Below are positions 30,292 through 46,263 of a stretch of 64,000 nucleotides of DNA, piece after piece. Position 1 is the stretch's first letter; each line of letters opens with the position of its first letter. This DNA is from Escherichia coli. GTDB taxonomy: Bacteria; Pseudomonadota; Gammaproteobacteria; Enterobacterales; Enterobacteriaceae. The notes beneath the pieces were generated by a model. That model had not been told where the DNA came from and ran no database searches. It was given only the letters and a program-made list of their open reading frames with translations. The DNA lies in the NCBI RefSeq assembly GCF_001677475.2, contig NZ_CP015229.1; one strand, written 5' to 3'. The position numbers and the translations under genes were made by a program.

Positions 30292-32280
30292 ATGAAAGAA
30301 TGGTATACAGCAAAAGAGTTGCTCGGTTTGGCAGGTTTACCAAAGCAAGCCACTAACATTACACGTAAGGCACAAAGAGAAGGCTGGGAGTTCAGGCAGG
30401 TTGCAGGGACTAAAGGTGTATCATTTGAATTCAATATCAAATCATTCCCTGTCGCATTACGTGCTGAAATTCTGTTGCAACAAGGGAGAATTGAAACAAG
30501 CCAGGGGTATTTTGAAATCGCCCGCCCCACGCTGGAAGCCCACGATTACGATCGCGGGGCACTGTGGAGCAAATGGGATAAAGCCAGCGATTCCCAGCGC
30601 AGACTTGCTGAAAAATGGTTGCCTGCAGTTCAGGCCGCAGACGAAATGCTGAACCAGGGGATTTCAACAAAAACGGCTTTTGCGACCGTTGCAGGACATT
30701 ACCAGGTCAGCGCATCCACTTTGCGAGACAAGTATTACCAGGTACAGAAGTTTGCGAAGCCTGACTGGGCGGCTGCACTTGTTGATGGACGTGGTGCATC
30801 TCGTCGCAATGTTCACAAAAGTGAATTTGACGAGGATGCCTGGCAGTTTCTGATTGCAGATTATCTGCGACCGGAAAAACCCGCCTTCCGCAAATGTTAT
30901 GAGCGTCTGGAACTGGCAGCCCGCGAGCATGGCTGGAGTATTCCCTCCCGTGCCACGGCCTTTCGCCGGATTCAGCAACTGGACGAGGCAATGGTTGTTG
31001 CCTGTCGTGAAGGTGAACATGCACTGATGCATCTGATACCGGCACAGCAGCGAACTGTGGAACACCTGGACGCCATGCAGTGGATCAACGGCGACGGTTA
31101 TCTGCATAACGTCTTTGTACGCTGGTTTAACGGTGATGTGATCCGCCCGAAAACATGGTTCTGGCAGGATGTGAAAACCCGAAAAATTCTGGGCTGGCGC
31201 TGCGATGTGAGCGAGAACATTGATTCAATTCGCCTCTCGTTCATGGATGTGGTGACACGCTACGGCATCCCGGAAGATTTTCACATCACCATTGATAACA
31301 CCCGTGGGGCAGCGAATAAATGGCTGACGGGGGGCGCGCCCAATCGTTACCGCTTTAAGGTGAAAGAGGACGATCCAAAGGGACTGTTTTTACTGATGGG
31401 CGCGAAAATGCACTGGACAAGCGTTGTTGCCGGTAAAGGCTGGGGCCAGGCAAAACCTGTTGAACGTGCTTTCGGTGTTGGTGGGCTTGAGGAATACGTT
31501 GATAAGCATCCGGCACTGGCTGGCGCATATACGGGGCCAAATCCGCAGGCAAAACCTGATAACTATGGCGACCGTGCTGTTGATGCAGAGCTGTTTCTGA
31601 AAACCCTTGCTGAAGGTGTGGCGATGTTCAATGCCAGAACAGGCCGTGAAACAGAAATGTGCGGGGGCAAACTCTCGTTTGATGATGTTTTCGAGCGTGA
31701 ATACGCCAGAACGATTGTGCGTAAGCCAACCGAAGAACAAAAACGGATGCTGTTACTGCCTGCCGAAGCGGTGAACGTTTCACGCAAAGGCGAGTTTACG
31801 CTTAAAGTTGGCGGCTCCCTTAAAGGCGCGAAAAACGTTTATTACAACATGGCGTTAATGAATGCAGGCGTGAAAAAAGTTGTGGTCAGGTTTGATCCGC
31901 AGCAGCTACACAGCACAGTTTATTGCTACACCCTGGACGGTCGGTTTATCTGTGAAGCGGAATGTCTGGCACCTGTTGCATTTAATGATGCTGCGGCAGG
32001 CCGTGAATATCGCCGCCGCCAGAAACAACTGAAATCTGCAACTAAAGCAGCCATTAAGGCGCAGAAACAAATGGACGCGCTGGAAGTTGCTGAACTGCTG
32101 CCGCAGATAGCCGAACCAGCAGCACCAGAATCAAGGGTTGTTGGTATTTTCCGGCCTGTGGGTAACACAGTACGGGTTAAATATCGCACCCCCGATGATA
32201 AATACGAACCCGCTCGTGATGAATATCTGAATCAGTCACTGGATATTCTGGAACAGAAAAGACGTAAAAAAGCCATTTAA
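30292..32280 (+). CDS. A: DDE transposase (MuA family)
   Basis: 662 aa; Mu-transposase-like sequence throughout; N-terminal domain shared with the repressor. Confidence 0.93.
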
Positions 32281-35909: not shown

Positions 35910-36228
35910 ACCAGAGAATAAAGAAATGAAATTCACACCAGTTGATATTGATGGCGTCATGGCTAATTTAAAGATGCTGGAACGTATGCACGATATCGTT
36001 AAATATGGTATTGAGCATGACCTCACCGCCAGAGAAGTCCGGAGCATTATTAACCGTGAAATGAACCAGGTGGAAGCTGCCGTGGCGCTACAAAATGAAG
36101 CAGCCCGCGAGGAATACATTCGTCGCAGGCTGGGACTATCAAATAAAGATATTCTTACGGATGCTCAGATGGCTGAGGCTTTTGATATTCATCAGAATCT
36201 TGGTCTAACAAACGGATGGTATCAGTGA
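35902..36228 (+). CDS. Hypothetical early protein
   Basis: 108 aa from ATG 35902 with GAGGT Shine-Dalgarno. Confidence 0.5.
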   Translation: MNKPENKEMKFTPVDIDGVMANLKMLERMHDIVKYGIEHDLTAREVRSIINREMNQVEAAVALQNEAAREEYIRRRLGLSNKDILTDAQMAEAFDIHQNLGLTNGWYQ

Positions 36229-36421
36229 TTAGCTGTGATATTTGCAGAATGGGATTATTCGTTGTTCTCAATGCCGGAGCCTCTGCCGCTCCGCTTGCTG
36301 CGGCTTCGAGGATCGTTTTGCCTTCCTCTGCGGTAATCAGCCCCTTTCTGACAAGGAGTATCAGCAACCTTGAAGCAATGACATACCCTGCAACATCATA
36401 AGGCTGTTCACTGTTTTTCAT
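36155..36421 (-). CDS. Hypothetical antisense-oriented small protein
   Basis: 88 aa from ATG (complement of 36419-36421) with GAGGA Shine-Dalgarno 7 nt upstream on the reverse strand; 3' end overlaps the preceding plus-strand ORF by 74 nt. Confidence 0.35.
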   Translation of the reverse strand: MKNSEQPYDVAGYVIASRLLILLVRKGLITAEEGKTILEAAASGAAEAPALRTTNNPILQISQLITDTIRLLDQDSDEYQKPQPSEHP

Positions 36422-36494
36422 AAAAAGTTTCCTCTGTTTAGTGAGTGGATTCTGGCGGTGTTGCCGCACCGCCCCCTTTTCTGGAGGTACGATA

Positions 36495-37046
36495 ATGAAT
36501 CGCACATCCCTGATTAAATTAATTCATGTCGCCCGTCGTGATCTACAACTCGACGATGACACTTACCGCGCCTTTCTGGTGCAGTGCACAGGCAAGACCA
36601 GCTGCCGCGAGCTGTCCGTTGCACAACTGGAACGTGTGCTCGATGCCATGAAAGAGTGCGGTTTTAAAAAGCAGAAAAAACATCCCCGCCGTCGCTTTAA
36701 GGGGCATGTCACACCGCGCGAGAAGATTTATAAAATCTGGCAGCAGATGTTTCAGGATGGCTTTATCGCTGATGGCAGCGATGTCGCGCTGGACAAATAC
36801 GTTGCACGCCTGACGGCCAGACGTAATGGCGGTCAGGGGGTTTCCACGCTGGCCTGGTGTCACGGGGAATCGTTGCAGGTTGTGCTCGAAACGCTCAAGC
36901 AGTGGCACATGCGCTGCATCCGGGAAGCCTTTGCCCGACATGGTGTGCCGTTACCTGCAAGCCCATCCGGGCGGGAACTACGCGGATATGATGCACTGAC
37001 CAGTGCATATGCCCGCGCACGAAACAGCGGGAGAATTGCTGTATGA
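36495..37046 (+). CDS. gemA: GemA-family protein (Mu gp16-like)
   Basis: 183 aa from ATG 36495 with GGAGGT Shine-Dalgarno; position upstream of mor. Confidence 0.8.
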   Translation: MNRTSLIKLIHVARRDLQLDDDTYRAFLVQCTGKTSCRELSVAQLERVLDAMKECGFKKQKKHPRRRFKGHVTPREKIYKIWQQMFQDGFIADGSDVALDKYVARLTARRNGGQGVSTLAWCHGESLQVVLETLKQWHMRCIREAFARHGVPLPASPSGRELRGYDALTSAYARARNSGRIAV

Positions 37047-37492
37047 AACAGATGAAAGAGCAGGATTTATTCGAAGACCTTCGGGACGACAGCGTTCTGG
37101 AATATCTTCATGATTACCAGGAAAACACCGCTTATCCGGCGTTACTTTCTGAACTGAACGCACTGCTGCGTAAAGAGCTGGCCCGGATTGGCGCAGACCC
37201 TGCTCATTCCCTTGAGCTGGTTGTGGCGATTTGTCGCCATATCGGCGGGATGCAGGTTTATGTTCCGAGGGGGAATATTCTGGAGAATCTTGTCCGGGAT
37301 ATGCGTATCTGGCGTGATTTTAACGGTCATAATATTCCTGAACTGGTTCAGCGTTACGGGGTGACGTATAAAACCGTCTACAAGGCCATCAAACGGATGC
37401 GACGTCTGGAGCGCAATAAATACCAGCCGGATTTGTTTTACCCCTCCCCGAACCTGCCTCACCCCGTTCGTCGTCCACCACGACGCCCTTAA
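37043..37492 (+). CDS. mor: Mor transcription activator (Mor/C family)
   Basis: 149 aa; sequence closely matches recalled Mu Mor (DLFEDLRDDSVLEYL, VVAICRHIGGMQVYVPRG, YKAIKRMRRL). Confidence 0.88.
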   Translation: MKQMKEQDLFEDLRDDSVLEYLHDYQENTAYPALLSELNALLRKELARIGADPAHSLELVVAICRHIGGMQVYVPRGNILENLVRDMRIWRDFNGHNIPELVQRYGVTYKTVYKAIKRMRRLERNKYQPDLFYPSPNLPHPVRRPPRRP

Positions 37493-37500
37493 TCAATGAA

Positions 37501-37522
37501 GCCGGTAAATCCGGCTTTTTTT
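37501..37522 (+). terminator. Rho-independent terminator after mor
   Basis: GCCGG-TAAAT-CCGGC hairpin followed by a run of seven T. Confidence 0.6.
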
Positions 37523-37577: not shown

Positions 37578-38174
37578 ATGGAAAATCAAAAATTCTCCCC
37601 GGCCTTTGAACATGCGCTGAATTTCATTCTGCGTCCCGATATCGAAGGCGTCTATGCCAATGACCCCACTGACCGTGGCGGTGAAACCAAATACGGCATT
37701 TCTGACCGCCGCGACGGTGTGACTGACGGCAAAACCGATGTCAACGGCGACGGCAAACCGGATACCCGCATCAGGGATTTAACCCGCGAACAGGTTGCTC
37801 AGATTTACTGGCGCGATTACTGGCTGCCTGCCGGATGTGACCAGTGGCCTGATGGCGTGGCGATGTTTGTGTTCGATGCGGCGGTTCAGCATGGCGTTAA
37901 AAAAGCTATCAGGATTTTGCAGGAAGCCGCGGATGTGGATGCTGACGGCATCATCGGCCCCCGTACCCGTAAGGCCGTGAGCCTGTCCACCCCGGACTGG
38001 CTGCTGGCCCGCTGCATTGTCCGTCGTTCCCGCTTTTATGCCGACATCATCAAGTCCAAACCCGCCCAGGGCAAATACCTGAACGGCTGGTTTAACCGCA
38101 TGGAAAAGCTGACCGACGCCTGTCTGGAAATCATCGATACCCCTCCAGGCATCATGTCCGCCACGCGGGGGTGA
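37578..38174 (+). CDS. Endolysin, glycoside hydrolase family 108 with C-terminal peptidoglycan-binding domain
   Basis: 198 aa; motif EGVYANDPTDRGGETKYGIS matches the GH108 family signature EGGY.NDP.DPGGETN.GI; DGIIGPRT in the C-terminal domain. Confidence 0.8.
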   Translation: MENQKFSPAFEHALNFILRPDIEGVYANDPTDRGGETKYGISDRRDGVTDGKTDVNGDGKPDTRIRDLTREQVAQIYWRDYWLPAGCDQWPDGVAMFVFDAAVQHGVKKAIRILQEAADVDADGIIGPRTRKAVSLSTPDWLLARCIVRRSRFYADIIKSKPAQGKYLNGWFNRMEKLTDACLEIIDTPPGIMSATRG

Positions 38175-38175
38175 T

Positions 38176-38427
38176 ATGGGCAAAGGCTGGGATGCCTCTC
38201 TGAAAGCCGGGCGGCGCGACCGCCTGCGTCAGGAGGTTCTGCACCGCATGGCCGGAGGTCCGCCCCCGAAACCGCTGGACTATACCGGCCATGACGGCAC
38301 ACACGCCAGCTACTACATGCGTGGCTGGAACTCCGTGGATACACGGGACATTTTCTGGCAGTGCCAGAAGTACAGGGAAAAATTCAATGTGGAAAAAGGT
38401 TATGAACAAAATTTTAAAACTGTGTGA
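38176..38427 (+). CDS. Hypothetical protein in lysis region
   Basis: 83 aa; starts 2 nt after the endolysin stop; overlaps the next ORF. Confidence 0.4.
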   Translation: MGKGWDASLKAGRRDRLRQEVLHRMAGGPPPKPLDYTGHDGTHASYYMRGWNSVDTRDIFWQCQKYREKFNVEKGYEQNFKTV

Positions 38428-38812
38428 CTGGCTGATTTGTTCCCGACTGATGAGAACCCCATGGCCGCTGGCCGGACTGACGCTCTGTATGTTCATCATC
38501 AGCATGTTATGTGGCTGGCGATCGTTCGTGTTGATGTTGTTGTCCTTTGCCGGGGTGGTGTTGTTTTCATACAGCGCAAGCCTCGGGAATGTGCCATTTC
38601 GCCTGCTGCCTGAGGTCCGTTACCGGGCTTTTGGTCGCCACATCATCGTGTGGTCATGGGTGGTCTGGGCGCTGGGATATTTCTGCTGCGTCTTCAGCAC
38701 GCTGATGATGATGTCACCGGCACACCCGGTGTTCTGGCTGTGTGGTGGCGGTTGCGGCGCTCTGCTCTGTCTTCAGCGTTATCTGTATGGAGGTTTCCCG
38801 TGGATCCGTTAA
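38402..38812 (+). CDS. Polytopic small membrane protein (holin-like or exclusion-like)
   Basis: 136 aa from ATG 38402; three to four hydrophobic helices; lysis-region context. Confidence 0.5.
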   Translation: MNKILKLCDWLICSRLMRTPWPLAGLTLCMFIISMLCGWRSFVLMLLSFAGVVLFSYSASLGNVPFRLLPEVRYRAFGRHIIVWSWVVWALGYFCCVFSTLMMMSPAHPVFWLCGGGCGALLCLQRYLYGGFPWIR

Positions 38813-39408
38813 CCCTTTCAGGCATCGCCTCCGTTCTGCTGAAAGCCGGGCCGGGGCTGATTCGTTCCGTCGGGCGCTGGTTTGGTGGCGGTACATCTGC
38901 CGCCGCTGACTCGGTGGCCGGTATGGTGGAAAGCGTCCGGGAAAGCCTGCCGGTGGCTGAACAGCAGCGCGTTCTGGAACAGAAGATGGCGATGTTACCA
39001 CCGGAACAACAGATACAACTGGAAACCCTGAAAATTCAGCTGCAACAACTGGAGGTGGAGCGGCAGAAGCTGGTGCTGGCTGACCAGCAGGCCGCACACC
39101 ACGAACAGCAGGAAACCATCCGCAATGGTGACAACGCCACGGACAGCTATGTGCGCCAGACGCGCCCGCTGCTGGCCCGCCTTTCCTGTTACAGCGGTCT
39201 GGCCTATGTGCTGTTGCTCTCCTGCGGCCAGATTGCCGGAGCCGTTGCCGGTGCCAGAGGTATCACGCTGCATATGCCAACACCGGACTGGGATATCACG
39301 CTGATGTTGCTTACCCCTGCGCTGGGCTATCTCGGCGTGCGAACCCTTGACGGCTTTGCCCGTTACAGCAAATCAAGCCGTCACAAAATGTCTGCGGGGC
39401 TGAAATGA
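38800..39408 (+). CDS. Lysis-associated membrane protein with coiled-coil N-terminus and C-terminal transmembrane segments
   Basis: About 202 aa if initiated at GTG 38800 (overlaps preceding stop); Q/L-rich heptad region then two hydrophobic helices; start uncertain (internal ATGs at 38920 and 38984). Confidence 0.45.
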   Translation: MDPLTLSGIASVLLKAGPGLIRSVGRWFGGGTSAAADSVAGMVESVRESLPVAEQQRVLEQKMAMLPPEQQIQLETLKIQLQQLEVERQKLVLADQQAAHHEQQETIRNGDNATDSYVRQTRPLLARLSCYSGLAYVLLLSCGQIAGAVAGARGITLHMPTPDWDITLMLLTPALGYLGVRTLDGFARYSKSSRHKMSAGLK

Positions 39409-39632
39409 CCGATGAAATCGACCGCATCAGTGAAGTGGTTCTGAACGAGCGTCAGTGCGTCGTTAAAGCCTGGCAGACGCGGACAAAAGAAGCGCCCCAC
39501 AGTCGGGGCTTCTGCAATGACTGCGGGAACGTTATTCCGGCACAGCGCCTTGCGGCGCTGCCGGATGTGGTGACCTGTATTGACTGCCAGCAGATGCGTG
39601 AGCGCAGGAGGAAGACATGTCCTGGGAAGTGA
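39405..39632 (+). CDS. TraR/DksA-family C4 zinc-finger protein
   Basis: 75 aa; CNDCGNVIP...CIDCQ four-cysteine motif characteristic of the DksA/TraR zinc finger. Confidence 0.7.
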   Translation: MTDEIDRISEVVLNERQCVVKAWQTRTKEAPHSRGFCNDCGNVIPAQRLAALPDVVTCIDCQQMRERRRKTCPGK

Positions 39633-39922
39633 TCCGGGCCAACTGGCCCATTTTATGGGCGCTGTTGATGACAGCGATAAATTTGCTTCAGCTGATTCTG
39701 GCAAAGACTTACGTCAAACGCGAAGAGTTTGATTCGCTGCGTTCCCGTGTGTCGGTGATGGAAGGTCTGGTGAATCAGCTCCCCGACCGCAATGAATTTC
39801 ACCGCCTGCAACTGGATATCAGCAACCTGCGGGGCGAAATCCGGGAACTGGGGCCATCCATACGCCAGGTTTCCCGCATCAGTGATTTGTTATTAGAGAA
39901 CGAGTTAAAGGTAAAAAATTAA
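39617..39922 (+). CDS. Membrane-anchored coiled-coil protein (i-spanin/Rz-like)
   Basis: 101 aa; N-terminal transmembrane helix (ILWALLMTAINLLQLILA) followed by coiled-coil-like sequence. Confidence 0.5.
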   Translation: MSWEVIRANWPILWALLMTAINLLQLILAKTYVKREEFDSLRSRVSVMEGLVNQLPDRNEFHRLQLDISNLRGEIRELGPSIRQVSRISDLLLENELKVKN

Positions 39923-40217: not shown

Positions 40218-40517
40218 ATGGCCCGAAAACTGAAGCCGTTAAGTCGCGGAGAACGGGCCGTCGTGCGGCAACTGGCGTACTGCCTTGTGCTGGCAGATAT
40301 TGAGCAAAACGCCATTGTCCGTGCATACGAACAACAGACCGGAAAGCCCTGGAGCCCGGATGCACCGGACAGCCCCATGAAACGCTTTCTGCGGTCATCA
40401 CCGGCATGTGCGCGGCTGTGGAAGCTGCTGGGTAAGGATATCCGGTCCGTTCGCGAAGAAATATACGCCGGTCTGAAAACACCGGGAACTGAAGACGGGG
40501 GCCGTCGTGAACCGTAA
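40218..40517 (+). CDS. Hypothetical phage protein
   Basis: 99 aa. Confidence 0.5.
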   Translation: MARKLKPLSRGERAVVRQLAYCLVLADIEQNAIVRAYEQQTGKPWSPDAPDSPMKRFLRSSPACARLWKLLGKDIRSVREEIYAGLKTPGTEDGGRREP

Positions 40518-40654
40518 AAAGAATCCGATAAGTAAAGCGTCCCGTGATGAACTCCGCCGTCTGGCGCACAACCTGACATGGCGGGAAATCCAGAGCGGCG
40601 CGCTGAAATCTGCATACGAAAGTTTACAGCGTAGTGAGCAACAGGAGGGCAAAC

Positions 40655-41236
40655 ATGGAAAATGAACAACGCCCCACCCGTGGCCGTCTTTCCAAAGTGG
40701 ATTTACTCCCGGACAGCATCCGGGAGCAGTTGCATCAGATGCTGCGGGAAAAGCGGCACACGCAGGAAGAAATCCGCGAAGCCATCAACGCCCTGATTGA
40801 CGAACACAACCTGCCGGAAGAGATGCAGTTAAGCCGGACGGGTTTAAACCGTTATGCCAGCCGCATGGAAAAAGTCGGGGCCAAAATCCGCGCCTCCCGC
40901 GAAATGGCCGAAGTCTGGGCGGCAAAGCTGGGTTCCGCGCCAACATCAGACGTCGGCAGGCTGCTGATGGAGTTTGTAAAAACGCTGGCCTTTGAAACGT
41001 CCATGTCGATGGCAGAAGACGACAAACCTGTAGCACCAAAGGCGCTGGGGCAACTGGCGCTGGTTGCCCAGCGTCTGGAAGCGGCAGCCATGACCAGCCA
41101 TAAACGCGAGAAAGCGATCCGCGATGCGTTTGCACAGGAGATGGCTGAGAAAACCGAAGAGCTGGTCAGAACGGGTGGTCTGTCAGGCGGTGCGGCTGAC
41201 ACCATCAAACGAGACATTCTGGGGATTAGCGCATGA
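40655..41236 (+). CDS. Mu gp27-like protein (putative terminase small subunit)
   Basis: 193 aa from ATG 40655 with AGGAGGG Shine-Dalgarno; directly upstream of the large terminase and overlapping its start. Confidence 0.6.
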   Translation: MENEQRPTRGRLSKVDLLPDSIREQLHQMLREKRHTQEEIREAINALIDEHNLPEEMQLSRTGLNRYASRMEKVGAKIRASREMAEVWAAKLGSAPTSDVGRLLMEFVKTLAFETSMSMAEDDKPVAPKALGQLALVAQRLEAAAMTSHKREKAIRDAFAQEMAEKTEELVRTGGLSGGAADTIKRDILGISA

Positions 41237-45093: not shown

Positions 45094-45235
45094 CCCTCCC
45101 GCCGTAAATCCCCCTGAAACGCATCAGAAACGCGTTTTTTATTCTGATGGCGTGAATGTGCATTCTGACGTTTTTGAAGATGCTGTGGCGTTTTTGAAGG
45201 GGTTTTGAAGGGGGTATTTCCCCGTTTTCAGTGAA

Positions 45236-45257
45236 GCCGGTAAATCCGGCTTTTTTT
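45236..45257 (+). terminator. Rho-independent terminator after F; same sequence as the one after mor
   Basis: GCCGG-TAAAT-CCGGC plus seven T; 26 bp identical to 37497-37522. Confidence 0.6.
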
Positions 45258-45306: not shown

Positions 45307-46263
45307 ATGCAACCGGAACTGCTGGCGCTGTGTTTTTCCCTGCCAGAACCCATCCCTGAGCTGACACCTGCTCAACTGCCGGAATGGCTCGAACTTGTCC
45401 CTGCGGGTGAGTTCACCGGGCGCGATGGCCGGACGTGGATTAACCGCAATCCGCATGAGGTGGTTGCCCGTTCGTCCGGCATCAAAATTCCGGTGGATAT
45501 TGAACACGCCACCGAAATTAAAGGCCCGCGTGGTGAAGATGCTCCGGCGTATGGCTGGGTGGAAGAACTGCGGGTGACGGACAGCAGCACCATTGAAGGG
45601 CGTGTTGTCTGGAGCGAGTCCGCCCGCTGGATGCTGAGCGAGCGCCGCTACCGCTATTACAGCCCGGCGTTTTTCTTTGACGCGGAAGGCGTAGTGACGC
45701 GCCTGTCCAGCGTCGGGCTGACCAACAAACCTAACCTGGATTTTCCTGCACTGAATACGGAGAAAAACCTGATGACAGTACCTGTGCAAATCACCGGCCT
45801 GCTTGGGCTGGCTGAATCTGCCACGGTGGACGATACCGTGGCCGCCATTAAACAACTTCAGGAGAACGAACAGGTGGCGCTGAACCGCGCACAGACACCT
45901 GATCTGACGAAGTTTGTGCCGGTGGAAACCCACAATCTGGCCCTGAACCGTGCCGAAACCGCAGAACAACGCCTTCAGCAACTTGAAGAGAAGGAAGCAG
46001 AAGCGCTTGTGGATGCGGCCATCGAAGCCGGAAAAGTGGCCCCGGCAAACCGTGACATGTTCCTTGCCACCTGCCGCACGGAAGAAGGCCGCAAACAGTT
46101 TGCGGAGTACACCAGAGGCGCACAGCCGCTGGTGAACAACGACAAGCCCAGCCAGGGCAAGGATAAACCCGCGCAGACACTGACCGACACCGAACTGGCG
46201 ATGTGCCGCAGCATGGGTATTACCGGGGAAGAGTTCCTCGCCGCTAAACCGAAACAGGAGTAA
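45307..46263 (+). CDS. Head protease/scaffold protein (Mu I family)
   Basis: 318 aa; immediately upstream of the major capsid gene. Confidence 0.8.
   Translation: MQPELLALCFSLPEPIPELTPAQLPEWLELVPAGEFTGRDGRTWINRNPHEVVARSSGIKIPVDIEHATEIKGPRGEDAPAYGWVEELRVTDSSTIEGRVVWSESARWMLSERRYRYYSPAFFFDAEGVVTRLSSVGLTNKPNLDFPALNTEKNLMTVPVQITGLLGLAESATVDDTVAAIKQLQENEQVALNRAQTPDLTKFVPVETHNLALNRAETAEQRLQQLEEKEAEALVDAAIEAGKVAPANRDMFLATCRTEEGRKQFAEYTRGAQPLVNNDKPSQGKDKPAQTLTDTELAMCRSMGITGEEFLAAKPKQE

Follow-up and report, generated by a model that had tools for sequence, protein, structure and literature searches.

Which lysis system does a Mu-like prophage use when it has no homologs of Mu gp22, gp23, or gp23.1? 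The question is raised by a gene block at positions 37578 to 39922 of the 64,000-nucleotide stretch of Escherichia coli DNA analyzed here (contig NZ_CP015229.1; referred to below as the window). The lysis set of Mu itself consists of the SAR endolysin gp22, the spanins gp23/23.1, and the releasin gp25, and Mu was reported to be holin-less (PMC9239132). An earlier note on this DNA had described the block as an atypical lysis cassette whose individual roles could not be decided from sequence. The block is a cell-bursting (lysis) gene cluster of a Mu-like prophage, ordinary in kind and atypical relative to Mu, and one-to-one homology with the characterized Mu lysis proteins was not found. It keeps a relative of the Mu releasin and contains no recognizable outer-membrane (spanin) genes; in contrast to Mu, its wall-degrading enzyme is soluble and is accompanied by a probable hole-forming protein from the ICP1 TeaA/gene-transfer-agent family. 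Most of the roles can be assigned after all, including those of a holin candidate (ORF202), a gp25 homolog (the DUF2730 protein), and a gp18 homolog (ORF83).

The prophage is of the Mu-like type, with its left end near 29.0 kb in the window. All of the ORFs in the earlier list were found on the + strand between 37578 and 39922, together with a sixth gene that the list had overlooked (a TraR/DksA finger gene, 39405 to 39632). The six genes abut or overlap (in order, a 1-nt gap followed by overlaps of 26, 13, 4, and 16 nt), which is an operon layout. PHROGs contained homologs for every ORF of the block, and the whole block was present at 90 to 99% identity in about 50 of 5,426 complete E. coli genomes, indicating that this set of ORFs is not due to chance. 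RM9088 carries a 99%-identical copy of the region, from which the PGAP start of ORF136 was taken.

The block lies downstream of a dyad (AAGCCGGTAAATCCGGCTTTTT; 37499 to 37520, + strand) that occupies the gap between mor and the endolysin gene and resembles the activator-site/hairpin element of Mu Pm. The dyad aligned with the region annotated as the middle promoter in Mu and also with the sequence upstream of the endolysin gene of Klebsiella Kp4866-3. A second, identical copy (0 expected by chance) was detected at 45234 to 45255, upstream of the head-protease gene. The two copies have about 37 nt in common, and each is located roughly 55 to 60 nt upstream of an ATG. We regard the dyad as a putative promoter element of the lysis operon. 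Annotation of the complete related prophage (STEC383) shows only one Mor-family gene.

The first gene of the block (37578 to 38174, + strand; 198 aa) encodes a GH108 N-acetylmuramidase with a PG_binding_3 domain, as had been proposed from the sequence; both Pfam domains scored above their cutoffs (PF05838, 82.5 bits, cutoff 21.2, 3e-23; PF09374, 62.9 bits, cutoff 24.6, 3e-17). The protein was also assigned to phrog_315 (endolysin; 1e-53) and matched the NCBIfam family NF040573 ("holin-associated N-acetylmuramidase") at 5e-20, under the cutoff of that family. The GH108 family has a conserved N-terminal E-G-G-Y catalytic motif. Residues 21 to 26 of the endolysin read D-I-E-G-V-Y, with Glu and Tyr retained and the second Gly substituted; the Klebsiella homolog reads E-G-S-Y at the same motif. 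No hydrophobic segment reached the hydropathy threshold anywhere in the protein, neither a signal nor a SAR segment was found, and the N terminus is charged (E2, K5, E11, R19, D21, and E23). On the basis of the hydropathy result and the charged N terminus, we classified the enzyme as soluble (cytoplasmic) rather than SAR. It had no similarity to Mu gp22.

The fourth gene, ORF202 (38800 to 39408, + strand; 202 aa), encodes a probable holin of the TeaA/GTA_holin_3TM superfamily. It has a GTG start with GGAGG upstream, and its product consists of a weakly hydrophobic N-terminal helix, a long helical/coiled-coil middle, and a C-terminal membrane hairpin, an architecture that agrees with the coiled-coil region and C-terminal hydrophobic helices noticed earlier in a protein of roughly 200 aa. 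Transmembrane segments were called by Kyte-Doolittle (KD) windows, and topology was assigned by the positive-inside rule. A clear hydrophobic segment was located at about residues 125 to 152, accompanied by weaker segments at the N terminus (KD, 1.35) and at about residues 163 to 181 (KD, 1.29); the family medians for the three segments were 1.45, 1.53, and 1.12. The charge distribution fits an N-out/C-in topology, and by this charge topology a role as an i-spanin was ruled out.

The assignment of ORF202 to a holin superfamily was suggested by several comparisons. ORF202 belonged to phrog_1544 over its full length (E = 1e-57), the same family as ICP1 TeaA (E = 2e-53, full length), and the ORF202 family matched TeaA by hhalign (85% probability, E = 7e-6). 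ICP1 Gp137, i.e., TeaA, collapses the proton motive force and is DNP-triggerable (PMC7182436). With respect to PF11351, ORF202 scored 20.4 to 20.6 bits, below the gathering threshold of 24.8, and 31 of 68 family representatives matched the profile at an E value of ≤0.01 (best, 8e-9). TeaA gave no PF11351 match by hmmscan, and the link thus rests on PHROG comembership and on profile and fold comparison. The AF2 model of ORF202 (pLDDT, 92) had top BFVD matches by Foldseek annotated as "Holin of 3TMs" (E = 2e-7).

Genomic context was consistent with this assignment. Relatives of ORF202 were located directly after four unrelated types of endolysin (GH108, DUF5675, LD-endopeptidase, and T4-type lysozyme) in Mu-like and non-Mu phages. 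Here, ORF202 lies two genes downstream of the endolysin gene; its relatives are directly adjacent to the endolysin gene in LP.1, Donnerlittchen, and metagenomic contigs. In Janthinobacterium phage Donnerlittchen, the endolysin gene is preceded by a different gene that is annotated as a class III holin, and the ORF202 relative is found in the usual spanin position, so the ORF202 family may not always provide the sole holin. ORF202 and roughly 130 family clusters were labeled "hypothetical protein" in all of the annotations that we looked at.

The last gene (39617 to 39922, + strand; 101 aa), whose start is preceded by AGGAGG, encodes the membrane-anchored coiled-coil protein of the earlier note, which proved to be a DUF2730 protein and a homolog of the Mu releasin gp25. 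It matched PF10805 over profile positions 1 to 102 of 102 (102.4 bits; cutoff, 24.9; 1.6e-29), was 29% identical to gp25 (E = 3e-9), and shared PHROG 736 with it. A single hydrophobic helix at residues 10 to 30 with a K/R-rich C-terminal flank is followed by helical repeats, from which an N-out/C-in topology is predicted, i.e., an N-terminal membrane anchor and a cytoplasmic coiled coil. In all 34 phages surveyed in a previous study, DUF2730 genes followed the endolysin gene at a distance of at most five genes (PMC9239132); the present one is the fifth gene after it. The target of Mu gp25 is the membrane-tethered SAR endolysin gp22, on which it acts through lysines 6 and 7, and gp25 did not show holin-type DNP-triggered lethality; the models of that study were stated not to cover DUF2730 families whose partner endolysins are non-SAR (PMC9239132). 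The partner endolysin is soluble here, and the SAR partner that defines a "releasin" is missing. Since no endolysin is tethered to the membrane for it to release, the DUF2730 protein cannot work in the way described for Mu.

Three further genes complete the block. ORF83 (38176 to 38427, + strand) encodes a small soluble helical protein that was 69% identical to Mu gp18 over 72 aa (E = 1e-36), with tblastn matches in Mu, D108, SfMu, and Yersinia Mu-like phages; its family also occurs in Vibrio and Shewanella Mu-like phages, between the endolysin and holin candidate genes. Its AF2 model (pLDDT, 81) consists of three helices, for which a PDB fold search gave no significant match (weak matches to RNAP omega had E values of >1). 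Nothing was found for ORF83 in the local Pfam copy or NCBIfam, and a precomputed PF26867 tag had no usable description. A gp18-holin fusion hinted at by the composite phrog_2121 profile was discarded, as no fused protein was present among the homologs. The 75-aa ORF at 39405 to 39632 (+ strand) encodes a TraR/DksA-type C4 zinc finger (C-x2-C-x17-C-x2-C), the positional counterpart of Mu gp24. It matched PF01258 (42.5 bits; cutoff, 24.9; 6.5e-11), scored just under the cutoff of TIGR02419 (58.6 versus 59.7 bits), and aligned with gp24 by hhalign (53%; E = 1e-4) with the four Cys residues in register. This gene was kept between the holin candidate and DUF2730 genes in all of the related Mu-like phages, and its product probably binds RNA polymerase as a regulator and is not itself an effector of lysis.

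ORF136 (38402 to 38812, + strand) encodes a four-helix inner-membrane protein, a counterpart of Mu gp19 by position and topology; the four hydrophobic segments seen by hydropathy bear out its earlier description as a polytopic membrane protein of 136 aa. The two proteins belong to different PHROGs (phrog_12596 for ORF136; 4975 for gp19), and their relationship was collinear but weak by hhalign (20% probability; E = 1e-3; a CGWR motif in both) and weak by BLAST with composition correction (E = 0.07 to 0.14). ORF136 alleles are hypervariable between prophages: amino acid identity to the STEC383 allele was only 40%, versus 86 to 99% for the neighboring genes, and the allele of the window was carried by only eight E. 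coli genomes. A counterpart was not annotated in three marine Mu-like phages (Vibrio and Shewanella), and a deep homolog search yielded only four near-identical E. coli clusters, too few for a useful profile. No holin family matched ORF136 in Pfam, PHROGs, or NCBIfam, and PADLOC gave no matches to defense or exclusion systems for ORF136 and its neighbors. We consider ORF136 accessory; it is a possible antiholin or exclusion protein.

The earlier note had raised the possibility of an embedded lipoprotein o-spanin. Strict and relaxed scans for lipobox ORFs in six frames (the 37- to 41.3-kb region, the window from 26 to 64 kb, the complete STEC383 prophage, and the Klebsiella homolog) produced no credible candidate, and they recovered Mu gp23.1 as a positive control. 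The matches were in-frame or antisense fragments only. An in-frame LLSC in ORF202 corresponds to MSLG in the Klebsiella homolog and is not conserved in the family, and a 59-aa, Pro-rich, alternate-frame ORF (39125 to 39304) has a noncanonical "PMCC" without a lipobox counterpart in Klebsiella; both were attributed to chance. Given that no lipobox ORF was present in any frame of the window or of the complete related prophage, no spanin is identifiable in this prophage. A phage of Gram-negative bacteria without a spanin is unusual, and some lysis component may therefore have escaped recognition.

The reading that we favor, and consider reasonably probable, is that the region forms the first part of a presumably late, Mor-activated operon and that it encodes a holin-endolysin cassette rather than the holin-less SAR-endolysin/releasin route of Mu. 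The prophage, unlike Mu, thus probably does have a holin. The GH108 muramidase, which has no export signal, would build up in the cytoplasm, while ORF202, which is distantly related to TeaA and to gene-transfer-agent holins, would build up in the inner membrane. At the trigger time, ORF202 would make holes through which the folded enzyme can pass, and wall degradation would follow. ORF83, ORF136, and the TraR finger would be inherited Mu backbone genes that flank swapped-in lysis genes and have accessory or regulatory functions. The DUF2730 protein would most likely tune the timing or efficiency of membrane permeabilization, and the outer membrane would rupture unassisted or by means of an unrecognized factor.

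Other distributions of these roles were weighed against this reading. If lysis were holin-less as in Mu, the DUF2730 protein would let the endolysin out as gp25 does and ORF202 would have another role; the clear gp25 homology and the location within five genes of the endolysin gene speak for such a route, but the endolysin lacks both a SAR and a signal segment, whereas gp25 targets a tethered SAR endolysin and the published models exclude non-SAR pairings (PMC9239132), which leaves this route very improbable. Equally doubtful in our estimation is that ORF136 is the holin and ORF202 its antiholin or regulator. A small polytopic membrane protein within the cassette would suit a holin, and Samanta et al. 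(cited in PMC9239132) at one time suggested that Mu gp19/gp20 form a holin-antiholin pair; however, ORF136 has no holin family match and no annotated counterpart in the Vibrio/Shewanella Mu-like phages that carry the endolysin-gp18-ORF202-TraR-DUF2730 series, and an essential timer would not be expected to have alleles of only 40% identity in prophages that are otherwise ~95% identical. We give still less credence to the view that members of the ORF202 family, rather than being holins, disrupt the outer membrane or stand in for spanins. This view would account for the constant location of the family downstream of the endolysin gene (the usual Rz/Rz1 place), for the annotated upstream holin of Donnerlittchen, and for the failure to find a spanin in the prophage, but the charge distribution puts the coiled coil and the C-terminal tail in the cytoplasm, the lipobox is not conserved (LLSC versus MSLG), and a member of the same PHROG, TeaA, acts as a holin (PMC7182436).

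Two refinements are compatible with a holin role for ORF202. ORF136 could be its antiholin, like ICP1 ArrA, and confer lysis inhibition, an unlikely but compatible addition to the holin-endolysin reading. In ICP1, Gp139 (one transmembrane domain [TMD] and a coiled coil), Gp138/ArrA (polytopic), and Gp137/TeaA lie next to one another, with a small 4-Cys protein after them; here, ORF136 is directly upstream of the TeaA-like gene, with the 4-Cys protein and the one-TMD coiled-coil protein after it. Against this, similarity was not detected between ORF136 and ICP1 ORF138 or between the DUF2730 protein and ICP1 ORF139, and Mu gp19, the closest counterpart of ORF136 by position, belongs to a phage without a holin to inhibit. 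A more speculative refinement, to which we assign a distinctly low probability, is that the DUF2730 protein acts on the holin and not on the endolysin, promoting or restraining the exit or entry of the Gly/Ala/Ser-rich N-terminal helix of ORF202 and thereby setting the lysis time; these two proteins and ORF136 would then make up a timing device of three membrane proteins that resembles ICP1 Gp137-139 in architecture, in a spanin-less phage.

Chamblee et al. (2022) described Mu lysis without a holin, via gp25, and left open the role of DUF2730 proteins beside soluble endolysins. The prophage provides an E. coli example of a DUF2730 protein with a soluble endolysin, in which a plausible holin has been pinpointed and no spanin found, and the function of DUF2730 in this setting is now testable with standard coliphage genetics. 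For annotation, a plausible role is gained for the ORF202 family.

The cassette has parallels in several known systems. To our knowledge, the RcGTA lysis locus has no DUF2730, gp18, or TraR neighbors. It shares with the window the order of an endolysin followed by a PF11351-type holin (rcc00555 and rcc00556, respectively) and is required for lysis (PMC5026251); both ORF202 and the endolysin of the window are below the curated cutoffs of the respective families (PF11351 and NF040573). The TeaA/ArrA locus of ICP1 shares a phrog_1544 protein of comparable architecture (pairwise identity between TeaA and ORF202, about 21%), preceded by a polytopic protein and adjacent to a one-TMD coiled-coil protein and a small 4-Cys protein. 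At that locus, TMDs are confined to three proteins, Gp137-139 (PMC7182436), in agreement with ORF137-139 of NC_015157. In contrast to the window, no endolysin was annotated beside TeaA in the stretch examined, and the nonholin neighbors are not detectably homologous: BLAST, PHROGs, Pfam, and hhalign gave no support for homology of ICP1 ArrA, Gp139, and ICP1 ORF136 to ORF136, the DUF2730 protein, and the TraR finger of the window.

Among Mu-like phages, the cassette is not confined to this prophage. Its module (endolysin, gp18-like protein, ORF202 family, TraR finger, DUF2730, gp26, and small terminase) was found in Vibrio 1.028.O-type phages, Vibrio phages martha 12B12 and vB-Vv-ZX4290, Shewanella phage vB_SspM_MuM16-2, and Klebsiella Kp4866-3. 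The pairing of DUF2730 with GH108 was already catalogued in 2022, and for Vibrio phages it is listed in Table S1 of PMC9239132; we found no assignment of a holin role to the ORF202-type candidate of these phages in the searchable literature. The marine Mu-like phages differ from the window in having no annotated ORF136 gene and, in some cases, a DUF5675 endolysin instead of GH108. With Mu itself (genes 18 to 26), the window shares, in the same order, GemA-Mor upstream, the Pm-like dyad after mor, gp18 (69%), a four-TMD protein at the gp19 position, a C4 finger at the gp24 position, gp25/DUF2730 (29%), gp26 (60%), and then the gp27/gp28 terminase. Mu gp20, C, gp22, gp23, and gp23.1 have no homologs in the window, which instead has a soluble GH108 endolysin ahead of the gp18-like gene and a TeaA-type holin candidate in the interval that holds gp20, C, lys, and the spanin genes in Mu.

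The window contains a Mu-like prophage carried on the E. coli chromosome, with host sequence stopping near 29.0 kb. Its lysis cassette, placed by the earlier note at 37578-39922, was borne out on the plus strand, and the same genes were called by PGAP in E. coli strain RM9088 and in a related, complete Mu-like prophage of E. coli STEC383. The previous count of five genes was too low; six are present, a TraR/DksA zinc finger having been overlooked. These genes encode an endolysin (37578-38174; 198 aa), ORF83 (38176-38427; 83 aa), ORF136 (38402-38812; 136 aa), ORF202 (38800-39408; 202 aa; GTG start with GGAGG ahead), the TraR/DksA zinc finger protein (39405-39632; 75 aa), and a DUF2730 protein (39617-39922; 101 aa), and they abut or share 4- to 26-nt overlaps. 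Further 3' come gp26 (60%) and two small ORFs, then DUF3486/gp27 and the large terminase. The 37.5- to 40-kb region is 99% identical to RM9088, and approximately 50 of 5426 complete E. coli genomes match it at 90 to 99%.

Two further features were observed nearby. Between the early region and gemA, a 116-aa ORF (36155-36505, minus strand) lies in the opposite orientation and may be a moron; an opposite-strand hypothetical gene is annotated at the equivalent place in the STEC383 prophage. A small basic protein encoded just 5' of the small terminase seems to have undergone partial tandem duplication, as ORF52 (40507-40665) matches the N-terminus of ORF99 (40218-40517) with 39% identity over its first 43 residues. 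In the Mu-like phage Klebsiella Kp4866-3, only one copy, of 91 aa, was seen at the position examined.

The endolysin contains GH108 and PG_binding_3 domains, each over the Pfam cutoff, and also matches NCBIfam "holin-associated N-acetylmuramidase" under the cutoff. It is predicted to be a soluble cytoplasmic enzyme because the hydropathy of the whole protein revealed no hydrophobic segment, and sequence comparison detected no relation to the Mu SAR lysozyme gp22. The GH108 domain includes an Asp/Gly-rich insert (residues ~44 to 66; RRDGVTDGKTDVNGDGKPDTRIRD) with a weak dockerin match that, in sequence, resembles a calcium-binding loop; the insert is also present in the Klebsiella homolog.

ORF202 is the probable holin of this cassette. 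Its match to PF11351 (GTA_holin_3TM) is weak and under the threshold (E value, 8e-4; 20.4 bits; cutoff, 24.8). An exhaustive HMMER search recovered 132 clusters of the family, and 31 of 68 full-length representatives matched PF11351 (best, 8e-9). In PHROGs, ORF202 (E value, 1e-57) and ORF137 of phage ICP1 (2e-53) are both full-length members of phrog_1544. ICP1 Gp137 to Gp139 have been described as the three transmembrane domain (TMD)-bearing products of one conserved locus; Gp137, which resembles PF11351, acts as the holin TeaA (PMF collapse and DNP-triggered OD loss) and its neighbor ArrA as the antiholin (eLife; PMC7182436). Given that ORF137 to ORF139 are exactly the three TMD proteins in NC_015157, ORF137 is TeaA. 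The ORF202 family profile aligned with TeaA at 85% probability (hhalign). The AlphaFold model of ORF202 is all-helical and confident (pLDDT, 92); the viral folds that match it best belong to "Holin of 3TMs" proteins (E value, 2e-7). Hydropathy (a simple measure, used for all transmembrane calls) and charge are consistent with an N-out protein in which a weak TM1 leads into ~90 residues of cytoplasmic coiled coil, followed by a TM2-TM3 hairpin and a basic tail on the inner side (C-in).

Genomic context also argues for a holin. Genes of this family lie immediately 3' of endolysins of four unrelated types, namely, GH108 (Vibrio phage LP.1 and the Mu-like phages), DUF5675 (Vibrio ZX4290 and Martha), LD-endopeptidase (Janthinobacterium Donnerlittchen), and T4-type lysozyme (metagenomic contigs); such variation in partner chemistry is as expected of a holin. 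In Donnerlittchen, a different gene 5' of the endolysin is annotated as a holin, and thus the family may sometimes provide a second lysis-membrane component. ORF202 homologs have no functional name in databases, where all are "hypothetical protein," and we found no holin assignment for this phage lineage in the papers searched. A separate profile, phrog_2121 (284 positions), was matched by ORF83 (3-85), ORF202 (89-273), and ORF136 (198-259), suggesting that one member may be fused or mis-clustered; the homologs searched included no fusion of gp18 with the holin.

The earlier note had left room for an embedded lipoprotein o-spanin. We scanned all six frames for lipoboxes from every ATG, GTG, and TTG start under strict and relaxed rules, both in the cassette and throughout the prophage portion of the window, and likewise in the whole 34-kb STEC383 prophage and the Klebsiella homolog. 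The scan recovered the Mu o-spanin gp23.1 as a positive control and yielded no credible candidate here. An LLSC motif read in frame within ORF202 lacks conservation, and a 59-aa Pro-rich alternative-frame ORF (39125-39304) has neither a canonical lipobox nor a Klebsiella counterpart. No protein combined an N-terminal TMD with a periplasmic body, as an i-spanin would; the body of the DUF2730 protein would be cytoplasmic by homology with Mu gp25 (PMC9239132). With neither component found, the prophage has no identifiable spanin.

The remaining genes have a homolog or a positional counterpart in Mu. ORF83 is 69% identical to Mu gp18. ORF136 occupies the position of gp19 and contains four hydrophobic helices; its charge pattern is N-in/C-in, and gp19 is annotated with the same topology; the two are collinear but only weakly similar (hhalign, 20%; E value, 1e-3), with a common CGWR motif. 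The TraR ORF encodes a bona fide C-x2-C-x17-C-x2-C finger, and all four Cys are in register with Mu gp24 at the same position (hhalign, 53%; E value, 1e-4). These three are probably Mu backbone genes kept around a module swap. Compared with its counterpart in STEC383 (30426-30836), ORF136 of the window has only 40% aa and 60% nt identity, whereas flanking genes are 86 to 99% identical, and the window allele occurs in only 8 of the ~50 cassette-bearing genomes; ORF136 is an allele-replacement hot spot, perhaps through diversifying selection or cassette exchange. The 101-aa ORF is a full-length DUF2730 match (102 bits) and a homolog of the Mu releasin gp25. As no tethered protein is there to be released, it cannot act as a Mu-type releasin; our guess is that it most likely modulates membrane permeabilization. 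Chamblee et al. state explicitly that such DUF2730/soluble-endolysin pairings lie outside their models, and they name testing of these as the next step (PMC9239132).

Within the 85 nt that separate mor from the endolysin is a 22-nt dyad (AAGCCGGTAAATCCGGCTTTTT; 37499-37520), which can be aligned to the Mu middle promoter as annotated (Pm Mor-site region) and also lies 5' of the Klebsiella endolysin. An identical copy is present at 45234-45255, with ~37 nt shared between both. Each copy lies ~55 to 60 nt 5' of an ATG: the first precedes the endolysin, and the second, at ~55 nt, an ORF starting at 45307, where the STEC383 prophage has its head-protease gene. A single Mor/C-family gene (window, 37043-37492; 63% identical to Mor and 32% to C) is annotated, also across the whole STEC383 prophage, which has com/mom genes at its right end but contains no C homolog. 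Mu itself requires C for mom and for the late operons. From the sequence, we infer that a single Mor-type activator switches on the lysis and head operons together. Lysis would then begin with Mor-dependent transcription, yielding a soluble muramidase that waits in the cytoplasm. ORF202 would build up in the inner membrane, trigger, and form holes through which the enzyme exits; the cell wall would be degraded, and the outer membrane would fail without a dedicated spanin or via an unrecognized factor.

Regarding known systems, sequence comparison detected no counterpart of Mu gp20, C, gp22, gp23, or gp23.1 in the prophage. The description of the cassette as atypical relative to Mu therefore holds, as one-to-one homology with the characterized Mu lysis proteins is absent and only the releasin has a homolog. 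The endolysin-then-holin order is that of the RcGTA lysis locus rcc00555-rcc00556 (PMC5026251). The ICP1 TeaA locus (NC_015157, 12541-14097) has the same architectures (a one-TMD coiled-coil protein, a polytopic protein, the TeaA holin, and a small 4-Cys protein), but detectable homology is limited to the holin. The same module (endolysin, gp18-like protein, ORF202 family, TraR, DUF2730, gp26, and small terminase) is found in Shewanella vB_SspM_MuM16-2, Vibrio vB-Vv-ZX4290, martha 12B12, and the 1.028.O group, and Klebsiella Kp4866-3; among these phages, ORF136 is annotated only in the enterobacterial versions. The GH108-DUF2730 pairing of Vibrio phages has been tabulated (PMC9239132). The useful gain is the annotation of the ORF202 homologs as putative holins; the cassette itself is not a new system and is shared with known Mu-like phages.
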